Translations under genes and position numbers: made by a program
Shown: positions 128 through 28,133 of the stretch, piece after piece
Layout of the letters: each line of letters opens with the position of its first letter
Numbering within the stretch: position 1 is the first letter of the stretch
Assembly (NCBI GenBank): GCA_016214755.1
Contig: JACRNX010000070.1
Location: 1-32,476 of the forward strand
DNA: 32,476 bases
Source of the DNA: Candidatus Falkowbacteria bacterium
GTDB lineage: Bacteria; Patescibacteriota; Patescibacteriia; UBA11705; JABHMO01
Reading direction: 5' to 3'
Notes under the pieces: generated by a model
The model's input: the letters and a program-made list of their open reading frames with translations, nothing else
Database searches by the model: none
What the model was told of the DNA's origin: nothing

Positions 128-904
128 ATGCTTTCAAAATTTATCCAACAATTGCGGAAAAAGAACAATCTAACGCAGGAGTTTTTAGCATCCGCGCTTA
201 AAATTTCCCGCCCGACCTATATGCAAATTGAGCGGGGCGAGCGAGATTTAACTATTACCGAAGCAGAAAAACTCGCCTCTATTTTCGGTATTCCGTTTGA
301 AGATTTTAGGCGCGCCAAAGATTCTTCCATCACCGCTGAAATTAAGAAGGGAAAGATGAAGCCAAAAGCAGAAAAACAAGAAATCAGAATCAGCGTCCCG
401 CAAAAAAACCTTAAAAAATTTAAAGAGGTCTTGCTTTATGTTTTATCAAAAGTCGGCGGCAAGCCGAATGTCGGCGAAGCCGTGATTTACAAATTGCTTT
501 ATTTTATTGATTTTGATTTTTACGAAAAATTTGAGGAACAATTAGTCGGCGCGACTTACATTAAAAATCATTATGGTCCCACCCCCGTTGAATTTAAAGC
601 CGTTATTGACAATATGATTCAGGGTGGTGAAGTTGTAAAGGTTGAAGAAAAATATTTTAATTATCCGCAAAGAAAATATTTAGCGGTCAGGCGGCCAAAT
701 CTTGATGTTTTATCCGGCCGCGAAATAGAACATATTGATGATGTCTTAGCGCGGCTTTCGGACAAAAACGCCAAAGAGATGGAAAATTATTCCCACGAGG
801 ACATTCCTTGGAAAACGGCGGAAGACGGCAAACCGCTTTCTTACGAGAGTGTTTTTTATCGCGATGAGCGTTATTCTGTAAGAAATTATGACGATGAACT
901 TTGA
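128..904 (+). CDS. XRE-family HTH plus Panacea (DUF4065) domain protein; putative type II antitoxin
   Basis: N-terminal helix-turn-helix (LTQEFLASALKISRPTYMQIERGERDLTITEAEKLASIF). C-terminal region with the K.LYKLLYF.D....G.PL...F.A...GP motif typical of Panacea/SocA-like antitoxin domains. Overlaps the downstream small ORF by 17 nt. Confidence 0.65.
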   Translation: MLSKFIQQLRKKNNLTQEFLASALKISRPTYMQIERGERDLTITEAEKLASIFGIPFEDFRRAKDSSITAEIKKGKMKPKAEKQEIRISVPQKNLKKFKEVLLYVLSKVGGKPNVGEAVIYKLLYFIDFDFYEKFEEQLVGATYIKNHYGPTPVEFKAVIDNMIQGGEVVKVEEKYFNYPQRKYLAVRRPNLDVLSGREIEHIDDVLARLSDKNAKEMENYSHEDIPWKTAEDGKPLSYESVFYRDERYSVRNYDDEL

Positions 905-2141: not shown

Positions 2142-3413
2142 ATGTGTCTGGCCACTCCGGCGAAAATCGTCGGTTTTAATCAAGATAAAATTTTAATCGA
2201 AAAGGACGGCGCGACGATGGAAGTCAGCGCTTTTTTATTGCCAAAAGCGAAAATCGGCGATTGGATTTTGTATGTTAATGATTTGGCGATAAAAAAAATT
2301 GACGCGGAAGAGGCGCGAGAGATTTTGCGGCTTGTTGAATCGCCGCGGAATAAAGTCAAGACAGAATTATTAAGTGGTAAGTTTAAGAAGATAATTGAAA
2401 AAGCGCATCAGAACGATTTGAATAAGGGTGAAATAATTTATTTATTAAACAGTGAAGGCATGGAAAAGGACGCATTGCTGGCGGAGGCGGACATCACGCG
2501 CCGCGCGTTCATCAAGGATTTTATTTGCATTCACGGCATTATCGAATTTTCCAATTATTGCGAGAATGATTGCGCGTATTGCGGATTGCGCTCGGCGAAT
2601 GGCGCGATCGAACGTTATCGGATGAGCATTGATGAAATTAAGGAAACCGCGAAGCAGGCGGCCGTCGAAAAAGGATACAAGCTGTTGGTTTTGCAGTCCG
2701 GCGAAGATAATTTTTATACCGACGATATGCTAGTTGAACTGATAAAACAGATTAAGTCCGTCTGTCGAGTGTTTATTTTCATGAGTTGCGGTGAACGCGG
2801 TTTTGAATGTTATAAAAAAATGAAAAACGCGGGCGCGTCGGGCGCGCTCTTGCGTTTTGAAACGTCAAGTCAATCATTATTCACAAAAATTCATCCGCAA
2901 GGAAAAAATTTAGAAAATCGAATTGAGCATTTGCGTTTTTTAAAAGAGTTGGGCTATTTTATCACCACTGGTTCGCTGATTGGTTTGCCTGGACAGACGA
3001 TTGAGGACTTGGCAGATGATATTTTATTGATTGCGCCGCGCGCGCACATGGTTTCAATGGGCCCGTTTATTCCTTGCGATAACACGCCGATGGAGAATTG
3101 CCCGGCTGGCGATCCGGAAATGAATTTAAAGATGATTGCCGTCTTGCGCTTGCTCATGCCGACCGCGAGAATTCCTGTTACTACCGCTCTGGAAACATTG
3201 CTCGGCGAAGACGGCCGGAAACGCGCGCTGGCGGCCGGCGCTAACGCGCTGATGATGAATTTAACGCCGAAAAAATACCGTTCGCTTTATAAAATTTACC
3301 CGGGCCGTTTTTTTGACAATGATTCGCTTTGGCAAAAGTATGGCTTGTTTAAATATGAAGAAAGTTATAAAATGCTTGAAGAGAGAATGGCGAAAGAAAT
3401 TAAGAGAAAATGA
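2142..3413 (+). CDS. hydE: [FeFe]-hydrogenase maturase HydE (radical SAM) with N-terminal HypC/HupF-like domain fusion
   Basis: Residues 1-~70 start MCLATPAKIV… and end …IGDWILYVNDLAIKKIDAEEAREIL, matching the HypC signature (MCL[AG]xP… VGDYVLVHVGFAI..ID.EEA). The rest aligns to HydE: IIEFSNYCENDCAYCGL (CX3CX2C), YRMS..EI, LQSGED, LLRFETS, ENRIEHL..LKELGY, GLPGQTIEDL, MGPFIP, YPGRF. Confidence 0.8.
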   Translation: MCLATPAKIVGFNQDKILIEKDGATMEVSAFLLPKAKIGDWILYVNDLAIKKIDAEEAREILRLVESPRNKVKTELLSGKFKKIIEKAHQNDLNKGEIIYLLNSEGMEKDALLAEADITRRAFIKDFICIHGIIEFSNYCENDCAYCGLRSANGAIERYRMSIDEIKETAKQAAVEKGYKLLVLQSGEDNFYTDDMLVELIKQIKSVCRVFIFMSCGERGFECYKKMKNAGASGALLRFETSSQSLFTKIHPQGKNLENRIEHLRFLKELGYFITTGSLIGLPGQTIEDLADDILLIAPRAHMVSMGPFIPCDNTPMENCPAGDPEMNLKMIAVLRLLMPTARIPVTTALETLLGEDGRKRALAAGANALMMNLTPKKYRSLYKIYPGRFFDNDSLWQKYGLFKYEESYKMLEERMAKEIKRK

Positions 3414-3652: not shown

Positions 3653-5035
3653 ATGCTGTCAGTTAACGATATTGTAACTGAAGACTTAATTCAAGATATT
3701 TTAAATAGAACAAAAAATGCCAGCGATAAAATCGCGCTGGCGATTTTAGAGAAAGCGAGAAAGAAAAAAGGATTAACGCTTGAGGAAGTCGGTTGTTTGA
3801 TTAACGCGCGAGATGACGGATTGATTGCGGAAATATTTGACGCCGCGCGCCAAGTAAAATCAGAAATTTACGGCGAACGTTTAGTCCTTTTCGCGCCGCT
3901 TTACGTTTCCAGCCATTGCGTCAACAATTGCGCGTACTGCGGTTTTCGACAGGATAATGGCGCGGGGCGGAAAAAATTAAGTTTGGAAGAAGTGGCGGAG
4001 CAAGTTAAAATTTTAGAATCAATGGGGCATAAGCGCCTGTTGCTGGAATTTGGCGAGGATCCGAAAGAGTCGCCGATTGACTATGTCGTTGAAGTTATTA
4101 AAACAATTTATGCCACCAAATGCGGTTTAGGCGAAATCCGACGAGTGAACGTTAATATCGCTGCCGATACGGCTGAAAATTATCGACAGTTAAAGGATGC
4201 GGGCATTGGCACTTATCAATTGTTTCAGGAAACTTATGACCGAAAAACTTATAAACAATTGCATCAGGGGCCCAAAGCGGATTACGAGCGGCAACTGTTC
4301 GCCATGGATAGGGCGTTTGAAGCAGGGATTGATGACGTGGGTTTGGGCGTATTATTCGGTCTTTATGATTGGCGGTTTGAAGTGCTGGCAATAATTAGCC
4401 ACGCGCGATACTTGGAAAAAAAGTTTGGCGTTGGCCCGCACACGATTTCTGTCCCGCGCTGGCAAAAAGCAGACGGCGCTCTCTGGCAATCAGCGCCGTC
4501 AGCTGTTTCTGACGATGATTTTTTGAAAATTATCGCTATCCTCCGTTTAGCTGTTCCTTACACGGGCATGATTATTTCCACCCGCGAACGGCCGGAAATT
4601 CGCGCCAAAGCGTTCAGCGTCGGTATTTCGCAGACCTCGGCCGCTTCGAGGACTTCGCCTGGCGGCTATGGCCAAAAATCAGAAACAGCGAATCAGTTTT
4701 GCGTTGCTGACGAGCGAACGCTTGACGAAGTAATCGCGAGTATCCTCGCTCAAGGTTTATTACCGAGTTTTTGCACTGCTTGTTATCGTTTAAAACGCAC
4801 GGGTGAAAATTTTATGGAGTTGGCAAAGCCGGGAGAAATCCAAAAATATTGTCGTCCAAACGCGATTTTGACTTTTCAAGAATATCTCGCGGACTATGCG
4901 TCGCCGGCAGTCAAGGAAAGCGGCGCGCGGGCGATTCAAAAACATTTGAACGCGATTGAAGATTCCGCCGTCCGCGAAGAAACGAAAAAACGGCTGGCGC
5001 GCGTCGCGGCCGGCGAACGCGATATTTATTTTTAG
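3653..5035 (+). CDS. hydG: [FeFe]-hydrogenase maturase HydG (radical SAM tyrosine lyase, ThiH-like)
   Basis: LVLFAPLYVSSHCVNNCAYCGFRQDN radical-SAM motif of the ThiH/HydG family. C-terminal FCTAC-X22-C (CX2CX22C) auxiliary-cluster motif, which is diagnostic for HydG versus ThiH. Confidence 0.85.
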   Translation: MLSVNDIVTEDLIQDILNRTKNASDKIALAILEKARKKKGLTLEEVGCLINARDDGLIAEIFDAARQVKSEIYGERLVLFAPLYVSSHCVNNCAYCGFRQDNGAGRKKLSLEEVAEQVKILESMGHKRLLLEFGEDPKESPIDYVVEVIKTIYATKCGLGEIRRVNVNIAADTAENYRQLKDAGIGTYQLFQETYDRKTYKQLHQGPKADYERQLFAMDRAFEAGIDDVGLGVLFGLYDWRFEVLAIISHARYLEKKFGVGPHTISVPRWQKADGALWQSAPSAVSDDDFLKIIAILRLAVPYTGMIISTRERPEIRAKAFSVGISQTSAASRTSPGGYGQKSETANQFCVADERTLDEVIASILAQGLLPSFCTACYRLKRTGENFMELAKPGEIQKYCRPNAILTFQEYLADYASPAVKESGARAIQKHLNAIEDSAVREETKKRLARVAAGERDIYF

Positions 5036-5128
5036 GACTTGAAATTTTTGATATTTATTGATACGCTGTATTTTGTAATTTGGGATTTGTTTAGAATTTA
5101 GAAATTCGGATTTAGAATTTGTTAGAGG

Positions 5129-5213
5129 GGGCAGGTGGTGGAACTGGTAGACACGTACGGTTCAGAGCCGTATGCCGCGAGGCATGAGGGTTCAAATCCC
5201 TCTCTGCCCACCA
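5129..5213 (+). tRNA. tRNA-Leu (anticodon CAG)
   Basis: Hand-folded cloverleaf: acceptor GGGCAGG/TCTGCCC, 3-bp D stem, anticodon stem TACGG/CCGTA with loop TTCAGAG, long variable arm (tgccgcgaggca), T-loop TTCAAAT, encoded CCA. Confidence 0.85.
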
Positions 5214-5311
5214 ATTTAGAAGTTAGAAATTGGAAATTGGAAGTTAGAGAAATAGATAGTTCTCATTTTTATTTTCCAACTTCTTATCTCCCATCTCTCA
5301 CCTCCAAATTT

Positions 5312-5387
5312 GGGCTCGTAGCTCAGTTGGTAGAGCGCGGCAATCGCAATGCCGAGGCCAGGGGTTCGATTCCCCTCGAGTCCACCA
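5312..5387 (+). tRNA. tRNA-Ala (anticodon CGC)
   Basis: Cloverleaf with the G3·U70 identity pair (GGGCTCG/CGAGTCC), anticodon loop ATCGCAA, T-loop TTCGATT, encoded CCA. Confidence 0.9.
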
Positions 5388-5405
5388 CCCCGACGGACGT
5401 CGGGG
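5388..5405 (+). terminator. GC-rich trailer hairpin after tRNA-Ala (CCCCGACG-ga-CGTCGGGG)
   Basis: Inverted repeat immediately 3' of the CCA end. The same core recurs after tRNA-Pro and at two other sites. Confidence 0.4.
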
Positions 5406-5544
5406 AAACTCAAAATTCCAAGCTCAAAATCCAAAGTAAATTTAAATTTTATAAATTTGATATTTAATTTGAATTTTAGGTTTTGTGCTTGAATCTATAA
5501 GGGTTTGTATCCTAGTCGAAATTTGTTAAAAGATTATAATAATT

Positions 5545-6522
5545 ATGGAATATACGGATAGGGTGTATGGAAATTTTGAAATCGAAGAACCGGTTATTTT
5601 GGAATTGATAAATTCTCCGACGCTTCAGCGATTAAAAGAAATAGATCAAGCGTGATACGGCGAGTCCTATTTCCCGGGCACCGCGCACTCCCGTTTTGAA
5701 CATTCAGTCGGCGTCTATTTGCTTCTTAAAATGTATCAGGCGCCGCTTGAAGAACAAATCGCCGGACTAATTCACGATGCCTCGCATTCAGCTTTTTCCC
5801 ATTGCATAGATTATGTTTTAGACGCCGGCTCGGGGAAAGAACACAATCATCAAGATAATGTTTTTGATGAATTTGTCAGAAAGTCGAAAATTCCCGAAAT
5901 ATTTAAAAAATATAATTTTGATTTAGAATATATTTTGGATGATAAAAATTTTCCGTTAAAAGAAAAGGATTTGCCGGATTTGTGCGCGGACAGAATTGAT
6001 TATTCATTAAGAACCGCCGTTGTTTTTGGAGAAATTGAAAACGGTCAGTATTTTATTGACAATCTTTCGGCAGAAAACGGCCAATGGATTTTCAAGGATT
6101 TTGAAAGCGCGGAAAAATACGCTGAATTATTTTTAAAACTTAACGCCAACTACTACGCTGGTTTGCCTTCCGCGGTTATGTTCCGGACAGTCGGCGACTA
6201 TCTCCGCTACGCGCTTTCAAAACAATATATTTCTGAAACTGATTTATATACCACTGACAAAGTCGTGCTGGAAAAAATAGAGCCGCATATTGAAACTGAT
6301 CCAGAATTAAGTTTGCTGTTTGACAGAATGAATAATAAAATCGGTTTTAAAAACGACCCGAATAATTTTGATGCCAAGGTTTTTTGTAAATCGCGAATGG
6401 TAAATCCTCTTTGCCGGCATGATGGAAAAATCAAAAGAGTTTCAGAGGTAAAGCCAAGTTGGGATGATATAATAAAGCGGGAATCTAAGCCGAAAGAGTA
6501 TTTTTTGAAGTTTGATAAGTAG
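5545..6522 (+). pseudogene. HD-domain metal-dependent phosphohydrolase interrupted by in-frame TGA (5653..5655)
   Basis: The conserved HD N-terminus (…LQRLKEIDQA*YGESYFPGTAHSRFEHSVGVYLL…) is split by an opal codon exactly where HD proteins have a conserved Gly (QLG…YPGA.H.RFEHSLGV). The listed ORF 5719..6522 (TTG start) lacks the H..RFEHS metal-binding half of the HD motif. Confidence 0.55.
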
Positions 6523-6655
6523 TCGGACCGGATGCGGAGGAGAACCGCCCATCATCTTCAAAGGCCAGGCGAGCTTTTGAAGGAATAGCAAAAAACAGAT
6601 AAAGATAATTTATTTGTTTTTTTATTTCAGCTAATTTTAGAGAGGTTTAGGATAG

Positions 6656-6684
6656 TTGACAGAATCATTTTTTTGTGCTATACT
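6656..6684 (+). promoter_or_regulatory. Sigma70-like promoter TTGACA-17-TATACT upstream of GC-rich islet
   Basis: Consensus -35 TTGACA (6656-6661), 17-nt spacer, -10 TATACT (6679-6684), about 45 nt upstream of the SD/ATG at 6731. Confidence 0.5.
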
Positions 6685-6730
6685 TTTATGTTCAGTGACA
6701 TGAACATCAACAACCTAAAGGAGGTGCGTA

Positions 6731-7099
6731 ATGAGGTACGACCAGTTCGTAGGGCTCAACGAAAGAGCCCAGGAGCTCATCAAGGGCGAGCAGGAGCTCG
6801 CCTACACGGAAGAGGTGGTGCGTATTTACCCTGATGGCGGGCAGGAAAGGATGCCGGATCGTCCGGTGTTCGAGTCCACGGTCAAGAAAGAGGAGAGCGG
6901 CGAATCATACACGGGTATGTTCACCGTCGAATATCCGCTCCACAAGTACACTTTCCCCAACGGCCAAATATACTACGAGCGCCTGCAGACAGCGCCGTGG
7001 TCGTCCGGCCCAGTCCATTTCCTCGCCCTCCAAAACGAAGACGGAAAGTGGGTTCCTGAATCCCTCTGGACAGACGAGGAAATCAGGCAAAACACTTAA
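6731..7099 (+). CDS. Hypothetical protein (GC-rich islet gene 1)
   Basis: 122-aa ORF preceded by a strong SD (aaaggaggtgcgtaATG). GC3-rich codon usage unlike its neighbours. Confidence 0.5.
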   Translation: MRYDQFVGLNERAQELIKGEQELAYTEEVVRIYPDGGQERMPDRPVFESTVKKEESGESYTGMFTVEYPLHKYTFPNGQIYYERLQTAPWSSGPVHFLALQNEDGKWVPESLWTDEEIRQNT

Positions 7100-7215
7100 C
7101 CGTTTCTCCCATCTTTCAAGCAAATCAATGGAACGCCCACGCGCGTTCCAATCTCCCCAAGCGATGTGATCCTTCGGTAAGTTCAGGATGATATCGTTTG
7201 GGGAGGTGAACAACC

Positions 7216-7449
7216 ATGATCAACAATAACGCGAAGATTCTGGTGTTCTCGGGTCTGGTGTCCAGGGAATGCGAAGCAGCGGCAGTGCCCAAAGGGCGTC
7301 TGCCTGAGGCGAAGGTGCTGGCGGAGCGTCGGTTGCGCGAGCTCGTCGGGAGGACGCAGGCGGCGCGGCAGGCGGGCAACTTCGAGAGGTACTACACGCT
7401 TCGTCAGCAGGTTCGCGAGATATCTCCCTCCATCGGCCGTCACCTCTAG
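7216..7449 (+). CDS. Hypothetical small protein (GC-rich islet gene 2)
   Basis: 77-aa ORF with SD ggggaggtgaacaaccATG, in the GC-rich segment. Confidence 0.4.
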   Translation: MINNNAKILVFSGLVSRECEAAAVPKGRLPEAKVLAERRLRELVGRTQAARQAGNFERYYTLRQQVREISPSIGRHL

Positions 7450-7613
7450 AAATCCCCTTGGTTCTATCCTCACGAAAAATCCAACCATTTCTACGCCGTG
7501 GACTTCTCTAAGTTCACGGTCCTTCCTTAAAAAATGATTATCATCGTTTTATAAGGAAGTTTCACGAGCAACGTGTTCGTGAAAAGGAAAACCAAACAGA
7601 TAGGGGAGGAAAA

Positions 7614-7874
7614 ATGTTCTGGAAAGCAAAGTTTTACATTGGGATCAGTTTCTTCACTATCGGCGCACTCGCTTTTCTCCTTTCCATCATGTCGCCCACC
7701 TGCAACGGGAATGTACACTTCATCATGTGGTGTACGTATATTCCCCCCGAGAAGTTCAGGTTCTTCGGCTCTTTGATGCTCATTGGCGGTGGGGTATTTC
7801 TTTATGCCTCATTGTCGGGCTTCCTGCGACACTATAAGAGTCTTCAAAGTCACCTGCCATCATCCCGCCAGTAG
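7614..7874 (+). CDS. Hypothetical small membrane protein (GC-rich islet gene 3)
   Basis: 86-aa ORF with SD taggggaggaaaaATG and two predicted hydrophobic helices. Confidence 0.45.
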   Translation: MFWKAKFYIGISFFTIGALAFLLSIMSPTCNGNVHFIMWCTYIPPEKFRFFGSLMLIGGGVFLYASLSGFLRHYKSLQSHLPSSRQ

Positions 7875-8062
7875 CGCTCCGACGTACCCGTCGAAGCGTT
7901 TTCCATTTTAAATATCAGGTTTACAATTTTTTTTTGATTTGTTAAAATCAAATCAATATTATATGGATTTACCCCACCGTGGCGGGGTATACGGATTTTT
8001 TGAGAAAGGACTAAACGTTTTCTTGATTTATTATTTTTTTGATTTCTTAATTTTTTATTTAT

Positions 8063-8139
8063 GGACGACTAGCTCAGCTGGTTAGAGCGCTACACTCACA
8101 CTGTAGAGGTCACTGGTTCGATCCCAGTGTCGTCCACCA
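8063..8139 (+). tRNA. tRNA-Val (anticodon CAC)
   Basis: Cloverleaf: acceptor GGACGAC/GTCGTCC, anticodon loop CTCACAC, T-loop TTCGATC, encoded CCA. Confidence 0.9.
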
Positions 8140-8223
8140 ATTTGGAAGTTGGAGATTAGAGATTGGAGGTTAGAAAGATACTCACTTCTAACTTCTCATT
8201 TCCAATTTCCCGTCTCCAAATTA

Positions 8224-8300
8224 CGGGGTATGGCGCAGTTGGCTAGCGCGCATGCATGGGGTGCATGAGGTCGCCAGTTCAAATCTGGCTACCCCGACCA
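8224..8300 (+). tRNA. tRNA-Pro (anticodon GGG)
   Basis: Cloverleaf: C1-G72 acceptor CGGGGTA/TACCCCG, anticodon loop ATGGGGT with G37, T-loop TTCAAAT, encoded CCA. Confidence 0.9.
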
Positions 8301-8378
8301 TCCTTCGAGGTTCGTCCCGCCAGAAGCGGGACTCGCACCTCAGGATGACAAAAAAATACAGAAGTACTAGAACAAAAA

Positions 8379-26145: not shown

Positions 26146-27009
26146 ATGAGCAGCTACGAAGATTTTAAAAATCGGTTCAAATTACTAGCTGGCAAAAATC
26201 GTCATTTGGTAGTTAATACCTTATCAAACATTTTTACAATGAGATTAATTGGGAATAAAACGCACGGCGATTTAGCTGAAATTGGAATTGTCGAGTTTAT
26301 CAATCAATTCATGTATGATTTTAAAAGTATTCATGTTGGCAAAGACCTTTTTCGGGCGAAAGAACACGAAGAAGATATAATGATAATGAGCGAGATAAGC
26401 AAAACGAAATTTCCCGTCAGCTTAAAAGCTTATGGGGATGGTCTTTTGCAATTATCCACTGACAGCAAACAGAAGATGTTCCCATTTCTTGAAAAGCAAG
26501 GTAAAGAAATCCGGGATAATAGAAAGATAGAAGCAATTTTTAACGCTTCTGAATTTTTCGATTTTGGGGCAATAAATGTAATGCCTCTAATTTATGATGA
26601 AAAAAATCAACGCTGCAACATCATGATTTTTGACCATAAAAAGGCAAGAGACAACATAAATAAAATTATATTTATTGATAAGGGACAAAGATTTGATTTT
26701 ATGACAGGCAGAGTGGTGCCAGGAAAGGGGAGATCCCATCCGATTTATATGTTTGTAGATCCTAAAAATGAATATATATGTGAAGTAAGATATGGCGGTG
26801 CTTCGGCAAATGCTTTACAGCGCGGCCTTTGGACACACACAAAAAACGCTATTGATTATTTTGACTCTCTCACAAATGGCTGGATAGATTATTCACACAA
26901 TCATACACTTGTAAAACTTTTTGGCCTTGCTTTAAATAGTTCCGAAGAAGGTCATAAAGTTGCTAATGAAATCTTACAGAAAGACATTGATAGGCTTAAA
27001 AAATTATGA
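26146..27009 (+). CDS. Putative Type II restriction endonuclease
   Basis: 287-aa ORF whose stop overlaps the methyltransferase start (ATGA), the classic R-M gene arrangement. Distant resemblance (…YICEVRYGGASANA…) to DpnII/MboI-family catalytic region. Unconfirmed. Confidence 0.5.
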   Translation: MSSYEDFKNRFKLLAGKNRHLVVNTLSNIFTMRLIGNKTHGDLAEIGIVEFINQFMYDFKSIHVGKDLFRAKEHEEDIMIMSEISKTKFPVSLKAYGDGLLQLSTDSKQKMFPFLEKQGKEIRDNRKIEAIFNASEFFDFGAINVMPLIYDEKNQRCNIMIFDHKKARDNINKIIFIDKGQRFDFMTGRVVPGKGRSHPIYMFVDPKNEYICEVRYGGASANALQRGLWTHTKNAIDYFDSLTNGWIDYSHNHTLVKLFGLALNSSEEGHKVANEILQKDIDRLKKL

Positions 27010-28133
27010 ACGATCAACAATTAGACATTTTCGGCAGAAAAACATTGGTTGTTCCGACAACAGAAGGCATCAAATACGCAGGGTCAAAATTAAAAATACT
27101 ACCTTACATCGTTCAAATTCTAGGCGAACTTGACGGAGTAAAAAAGGTACTTGATGGGTTTAGCGGAACAACCAGAGTTTCTCAAGCTTTTGCTCAGCTT
27201 GGATATAAAACGACAGCCAACGATATTTCAGCTTGGTCTGAAGTTTTTGGTACGTGCTATCTAAAGTCAAAAAAAGAAGATAAATTTTATCAGCAAATTT
27301 TAGATCGCTTGAATGGCTTAAAAGGATATGATGGCTGGTACACAAAACACTACGGGGCGGAAATAGACGAGGGCAAAAAACCCTTTCAAACAAAGAATAC
27401 TAGAAAACTCGATGCAATAAGGGATGAGATAGAGAAATTGGATTTATCGTGGGAAGATAAATGTGTTATTTTAACAAGCTTAATCTATGCCCTTGATTCT
27501 GTTGATAGTACCCTTGGGCACTATGTTTCTTACTTGGCAAAATGGTCTCCAAGATCGCATAATGGTTTATTTTTGAAATTGCCAAAAAGATTTAAAACCA
27601 AAGGAAAACACGAAGTAATTCGTGGAGATATTTTTGATACGATACAAAAAAAAGAATTTGATTTTGTATATTTCGACCCTCCTTATGGCTCAAACAATGA
27701 AAAAATGCCTCCGAGCCGTGTCAGGTATGCTTCTTATTATCACATATGGACTACTATTATCAATCACGACAAGCCTGAATTATTTGGAAAGGTTAATCGA
27801 AGAGTGGACACAAGAGATATTGTTGCTAGTTCTGTTTTTGAGGAATTTAGAAAAAATGAAAAAGGAAGTTTTATCGCTATGGAGGCGTTAAGAAAACTAA
27901 TCCAAGAAACTAAATCTCATTATATTCTTCTTTCGTATAGTTCTGGAGGTAGGGCGACGAAGCAAGAATTAAATGACATAATACACGAATCGGGAAAATT
28001 ACTAAAAGCAGTTGAAATTAACTATAAAATAAATGTTATGGGTGGTATGCGTTGGACAAACAAATGGATTAACAGCGATAATCAACACCATGAGTATTTA
28101 TTCTTAATGGAAAAGACAAGGAATGTGTTTTGA
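27006..28133 (+). CDS. DNA N6-adenine methyltransferase, D12 (Dam-like) class
   Basis: Motif I-like KYAGSKLKILPYI and catalytic FDFVYFDPPYGS (DPPY). Confidence 0.85.
   Translation: MNDQQLDIFGRKTLVVPTTEGIKYAGSKLKILPYIVQILGELDGVKKVLDGFSGTTRVSQAFAQLGYKTTANDISAWSEVFGTCYLKSKKEDKFYQQILDRLNGLKGYDGWYTKHYGAEIDEGKKPFQTKNTRKLDAIRDEIEKLDLSWEDKCVILTSLIYALDSVDSTLGHYVSYLAKWSPRSHNGLFLKLPKRFKTKGKHEVIRGDIFDTIQKKEFDFVYFDPPYGSNNEKMPPSRVRYASYYHIWTTIINHDKPELFGKVNRRVDTRDIVASSVFEEFRKNEKGSFIAMEALRKLIQETKSHYILLSYSSGGRATKQELNDIIHESGKLLKAVEINYKINVMGGMRWTNKWINSDNQHHEYLFLMEKTRNVF

Follow-up and report, generated by a model that had tools for sequence, protein, structure and literature searches.

The dNTP triphosphohydrolases of the SAMHD1, EF1143 and 2hek type (COG1078-like) have in common an N-terminal signature, QRL..I.Q.G..(F)PG..H.RFEHS.GV. 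The same signature is found in a putative HD phosphohydrolase gene of a Candidatus Falkowbacteria contig, of which a stretch of 32,476 nucleotides was analyzed here (the window), and the HD pair (H77-D78) and the D.R.DY motif of SAMHD1 and 2hek likewise align with the frame of this gene. The family to which it belongs is 325 aa in length, compared to 370–630 aa for the characterized enzymes of the SAMHD1/EF1143/2hek type; it lacks roughly 100 residues or more that are found in the characterized dNTP triphosphohydrolases, and is only 16–21% identical to them. Unlike in those enzymes, the frame of the copy in the window is interrupted by a stop (codon 37). In this respect it resembles the genes of Gracilibacteria and Absconditabacteria that are read with translation table 25, since the in-frame UGA lies exactly where relatives have Gly.

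The frame of 325 codons extended from an ATG (5545–5547) to a TAG (6520–6522), and its sole interruption was the TGA at codon 37 (Table 1). Residues 1–325 of the family consensus aligned to positions 5545–6519 in a single frame across the stop, with 88% identity (tblastn). Because this alignment crosses the stop in one frame, the 36 upstream codons are part of the gene rather than a chance ORF, as had been proposed in a sequence-only reading of this DNA, in which the gene was extended upstream in the same frame. Comparison with the 325-aa orthologs, with which the 36 codons align, also placed these N-terminal amino acids within the protein. When the frame was shifted by +1 or −1 at the TGA, as read from the sequence, all homology was lost, and the zero frame alone continued the protein.

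TABLE 1. Coordinates of the interrupted frame and its parts in the window.
Feature	Positions	Strand	Remarks
First 36 codons of the putative HD phosphohydrolase gene (MEYTDRVYGNFEIEEPVILELINSPTLQRLKEIDQA)	5545..5652	+	Residue-for-residue alignment with the 325-aa orthologs; unannotated
In-frame TGA at codon 37, in place of an invariant Gly	5653..5655	+	Mostly GGA in orthologs
Other 288 codons of the frame and TAG	5656..6522	+	HD motif residues; no second stop or frameshift
GenBank ORF HZB94_04975 (MBI5077700.1, "hypothetical protein", 267 aa)	5719..6522	+	TTG start at 5719

The read-through translation matched the Pfam HD domain (PF01966) over residues 50–153, with a score of 26.4 bits (gathering cut-off 22; E = 8.9e-6). 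Among solved structures, phmmer matched the read-through frame to Aquifex O67745 (2hek; E = 9e-14, residues 2–173) and to SAMHD1 (E of 4e-13 to about 1e-12, residues 4–90), and the matches also included E. faecalis EF1143 and BT4208. The structure matches begin at residue 2–4, which makes the N-terminal part a conserved element of the enzyme class. The Pfam score and the alignments with 2hek and SAMHD1 confirmed the assignment to the HD family that had been made from the letters alone. In these alignments, Gly37 paired with the Gly of "KQLG" in SAMHD1, and the motif residues fell on "RFEHS" (His53, at its His), "HD" (H77-D78) and "D.K.DY" (D149, at its aspartate). Residues H53 (5701–5703), H77-D78 (5773–5778) and D149 (5989–5991) were all present and aligned with their SAMHD1 and 2hek equivalents, so that the H...HD...D metal-binding set is complete in the frame. 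We take the SAMHD1 counterparts to be H167 for H53, H206-D207 for H77-D78, and D311 for D149.

Neither PADLOC nor NCBIfam gave a match by which the HD protein could be assigned to a named family or a defence system, and its sole PHROG match was weak, to a family of unknown function. An AF2 model of an 86%-identical ortholog (P0001), not of the window protein itself, had a pLDDT of 80 overall; residues 1–32 formed a confident beta-hairpin and two helices, and the N-terminal stretch had a pLDDT of 91–96. With this model, the best Foldseek match was EF1143 (4lrl; TMq 0.78, probability 1.00), followed by 2hek, BT4208 and SAMHD1. Based on sequence comparison, the gene is a stand-alone, compact, SAMHD1/EF1143-like HD phosphohydrolase gene of 325 codons, encoding a putative enzyme.

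A search of 5.8 billion proteins returned 2445 matches, of which the best 120 were inspected. Nearly all of these 120 were exactly 325 aa in length and 75–86% identical over the whole frame, and they came from many Patescibacteria lineages. Position 37 was Gly in 117 of the best 120 matches, the remaining three being two regex non-matches and a shortened self match. Gly37 was also kept in every copy having an N-terminus among 56 genomic loci, and Gly stood at the aligned position in Aquifex 2hek and human SAMHD1; the stop thus falls on a conserved Gly, as first noticed in the sequence-only reading. Codon 37 was GGN in all intact standard-code orthologs; of the 18 closest, 14 had GGA. Because the ortholog codon is mostly GGA, a single G-to-T change suffices for TGA. 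A stop at codon 37 was found in none of the approximately 170 standard-code orthologs inspected, two protein searches (with the full frame and with the post-stop part) yielded no relative closer than 86% identity, and a scan of JGI metagenome contigs for the exact pattern, with N at the mutated base, gave no match. One match of 267 aa (P0123) was considered as a second truncated copy and was rejected, as it is cut off by the end of its contig.

The single base that separates the TGA from the majority ortholog codon GGA could also have arisen as an error of sequencing or of the consensus, or be a variant of a sub-population, in an organism that really has GGA, and G-to-T is a known error type of oxidative damage. 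However, Logan contig L001 (SRR12113407, 3014 nt) was 100% identical to window positions 5086–8099, including the TGA. Since two different assemblers gave the same base, the TGA is not an artefact of one assembler, although the MAG and Logan contigs may rest on the same reads and, hence, share a consensus error. Furthermore, an intact allele (325 aa, >86% identical) was absent among about 15 billion catalogued proteins, and real pseudogenes are presumably far more common than substitution errors in the consensus of Illumina assemblies. Taken together, an artefact or sub-population variant is unlikely.

The TGA is best explained, with a probability of roughly 0.8, as an ordinary and very recent nonsense mutation that knocks out the HD gene, and not as a change of the genetic code. 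A G-to-T transversion would have turned the ancestral GGA of the invariant Gly37 into TGA. A dispensable accessory gene would thereby have become a very young pseudogene, or would exist as a null allele that dominates the sampled population. Three options had been offered from the sequence alone: that GGA was mutated to TGA and the gene pseudogenized, that the base is a sequencing error, or that the stop is read through at this site. The first is favored, with GGA as the majority ortholog codon, two assemblies in agreement and no relative carrying the stop, while the other two are less likely, with no readthrough or SECIS signal found.

The remainder of the gene showed no further decay. No second stop or frameshift occurred in the frame after codon 37. 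With codon 37 set aside, the window copy deviated at 4 of 159 columns that are ≥95% conserved; for the other 112 family members, the median number of such deviations was 2 and the highest was 11. Because the gene is otherwise undecayed, the lesion is young, and we infer that the mutation was recent. Stop-creating changes account for 5.6% of single substitutions, and the probability of observing no further stop would be 0.065 at a neutral divergence of 5%. Pairwise dN/dS against orthologs was about 0.05, a measure that is blind to recent relaxation because synonymous sites were saturated (dS from 1.2 to over 2.5). Continued selection on the gene is, as an alternative to a young lesion, much less likely.

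Translation from the ATG at 5545 would end after 36 residues. Read from the sequence, there was no in-frame ATG, GTG or TTG between positions 5656 and 5718, and the possible restarts after the stop, a TTG at 5719 (codon 59) or an ATG at 5731, both lie after His53, with no SD-like motif ahead of either. A restart at one of these codons would lose the conserved QRL..IDQ.G element of the N-terminus as well as His53, which in this enzyme class is a metal ligand (the first residue of H..HD..D), as the alignment with SAMHD1 and 2hek supports. Because every restart lies after His53 and the N-terminal element, no active enzyme is expected. The truncated product should, judging from the residues lost, be inactive, and the HD gene has presumably lost its function. 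As the TGA breaks the frame, there is no uninterrupted ORF that could yield all of the HD motif residues. HZB94_04975, listed as a 267-aa "hypothetical protein", is the tail of the disrupted HD gene and merits a pseudogene flag. The program-made list of ORFs likewise contains no more of the gene than this downstream piece.

A frame that is fully intact after the stop, with all motif residues kept, would also be seen if the UGA were leaky or read through at this site by a near-cognate tRNA-Trp, tRNA-Cys or tRNA-Arg, or by an unknown suppressor, giving full-length protein at a low level and a partly functional gene. Of the bacterial stops, UGA is the leakiest, and a preserved gene with a long-term dN/dS of about 0.05 is equally expected of a functional gene that has been rescued. 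However, an intact frame is expected of a very young pseudogene as well, and near-cognate decoding would not supply Gly, which is invariant out to human SAMHD1. Moreover, the features of programmed readthrough were lacking. The stop was not conserved in the standard-code orthologs, where none of about 170 had it. The 60 nt 3′ of the UGA folded with an MFE of −12.5 kcal/mol, compared to a mean of −14.3 for shuffled sequences (z = +0.69), and the fold of a 91-nt stretch had z = −0.01; by this comparison, there was no SECIS-like or unusually stable structure downstream of the codon-37 UGA. The stop context, TGA-T (+4 U), was ordinary, being shared with 3 of the 11 natural TGA stops of the window. 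In E. coli, termination is efficient when U follows the stop at +4. Readthrough that leaves some function is, therefore, about as improbable as an artefact.

Selenocysteine at codon 37 is the least probable of the explanations considered. The one point in its favor is that the codon is UGA, whereas homologs have Gly at this position and never Cys or Sec. Beyond the absence of a SECIS-like hairpin, Rfam searches over positions 5000–8500 at E ≤ 1 matched tRNAs only (four) and no recoding element. The four tRNAs of the window were Leu(CAG), Ala(CGC), Val(CAC) and Pro(GGG), and neither a suppressor tRNA with a UCA anticodon nor a tRNA-Sec, sel genes or prfB were found within the 32-kb window. Both selenocysteine and structure-driven readthrough were rejected on the lack of structure and of an Rfam match.

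The window uses the standard code. In the 24 other ORFs, which include ArgRS, a P-type ATPase, MacB, an ABC ATPase, radical-SAM proteins and a restriction–modification (R-M) pair, 7945 sense codons contained no in-frame TGA, and Gly was encoded by GGN in each of 521 cases. TGA terminated 11 of these 24 ORFs, including one in an ATGA stop/start overlap at 27006–27009. These counts agree with the earlier observation that the other genes of the window are intact and that several end in TGA, and they support its corollary that global recoding of UGA is unlikely. The coverage by long ORFs pointed in the same direction: when TGA was read as a sense codon, it rose from 0.76 to 0.84 in the window, a gain as small as in two standard-code controls (0.73 to 0.86 in L009 and 0.69 to 0.80 in L018), unlike the code-25 locus L049, in which it rose from 0.57 to 0.90. 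Codes 25 and 4 were, therefore, both rejected for the window.

Locus L049 (6001–6975), from a MAG labelled as Peribacteria/Gracilibacteria, carried an HD ortholog with five in-frame TGAs, all of them at conserved Gly and one of them at Gly37, and its flanks also required TGA as a sense codon. The stop in the window thus lies exactly at a Gly that is encoded by TGA in a code-25 ortholog, as would be expected if UGA meant Gly, either with the host on code 25 or with the gene recently acquired from a code-25 donor among the Gracilibacteria or Absconditabacteria. Such an explanation is nevertheless extremely improbable. Code-25 genomes have TGA at many Gly in every gene and never as a stop, whereas here there is one TGA, at 1 of the 15 Gly positions of the gene, compared to the five in L049, and TGA is otherwise a stop. 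A code-25 donor is further opposed by the identity to L049 of only about 50%, while the nearest relatives (86%) use the standard code and have GGA. In bacteria, UGA as Gly is known only from Absconditabacteria and Gracilibacteria (PMC8629427). The decoding of UGA as Gly within the window is effectively refuted.

Very improbable, too, is a weaker form in which a standard-code CPR bacterium of the Parcubacteria type (Falkowbacteria) decodes its lone UGA usefully, ideally as Gly, as an "ambiguous intermediate" toward the UGA = Gly assignment of Gracilibacteria and Absconditabacteria. If true, the preserved remainder of the gene would reflect continued function and not a young lesion, and the readthrough would bear on how UGA reassignment begins.

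Two other frames of the window that resembled genes with in-frame TGA were also considered and rejected. The frame at 8371–9252 (+), taken as a second in-frame-TGA gene, was serine-rich junk antisense to 8421–9167 (−), and the translation of the long frame at 6589–7449, broken by TGA only, was not protein-like. The minus-strand ORF at 8421–9167 is itself a plausible 248-aa orphan, and the plus frame opposite to it, being broken by TGAs alone, mimics a recoded gene.

The HD gene stands alone in the window, with a tRNA-Leu/tRNA-Ala pair on one side and a GC-rich patch of orphan ORFs on the other. This patch (6750–7500), directly downstream of the HD gene, had a GC content of 55–59%, compared to 43% for the window, and gave no match to Pfam, PHROG, PADLOC or Rfam. 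Its orphan ORFs at 6731–7099 and 7216–7449 had strong GGAGG ribosome-binding sites, and a near-consensus sigma-70-type promoter was located nearby at 6656–6684. The patch may be foreign DNA.

Several other genes of the window deserve mention. The ORF at 10514–12181 (−) encodes 555 aa with a Pfam MVP_shoulder domain (E = 1.6e-28), Vault repeat domains and Band_7/SPFH, so that this CPR bacterium has a major-vault-protein-like gene. Two adjacent genes, at 2142–3413 (+) and 3653–5035 (+), encode radical-SAM + BATS proteins, which may be HydE/HydG-like maturases; the former has an unusual architecture, with an N-terminal HypC/HupF domain fused to radical-SAM + BATS. The type II R-M pair at 26146–28133 (+) consists of a restriction endonuclease (PADLOC REase_II, E = 1.6e-111) and a D12 N6-adenine methyltransferase, overlapping by ATGA, and a Fic/DOC gene and an AAA_5 ATPase lie downstream of it; together they resemble an island of defence or accessory genes. 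At 128–904 (+), an antitoxin-like gene with HTH and SocA/Panacea domains overlaps an orphan ORF of 126 aa (888–1268), and the two overlapping genes (128–1268, +) may be a toxin–antitoxin pair.

Beyond the window, the 325-aa family occurred in many CPR classes (Roizman-, Portnoy-, Uhr-, Zambryski-, Kaiser-, Ryan-, Magasanik- and Blackburnbacteria) at 75–86% identity, with a fixed length, saturated synonymous sites, a dN/dS of about 0.05 and no conserved neighbors. Such a pattern amounts to constraint of unusual strength, or to spread by gene transfer. Decayed copies were seen in two Paceibacterota MAGs, one in which the HD copy was disrupted by two frameshifts (L053, 6001–6973), and one in which only a remnant of residues 187–325 was left, with a frameshift (L056, 6001–6416). 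No conserved neighbors or flanks of the HD gene were found across the 56 loci. These decayed copies, together with the lack of conserved neighbors, fit an expendable, patchily distributed accessory gene.

The nonsense mutation in the window provides a clean contrast for the screening of CPR MAGs for code 25, with a lone nonsense codon at a Gly position in a standard-code CPR genome set against the five TGAs of the HD ortholog in L049. The disrupted HD gene is of use in annotation and can serve as a control in such screens, and is not novel biology. Indeed, it has the properties of ordinary bacterial nonsense pseudogenes, which show the same single premature stop, one substitution away from the ortholog codon, in a frame that is otherwise intact, and which are likewise annotated automatically as a shortened "hypothetical protein" from a downstream start. 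Compared to these pseudogenes there is no difference in kind, and what is unusual is only the very strong purifying selection on the family, with a dN/dS of about 0.05.
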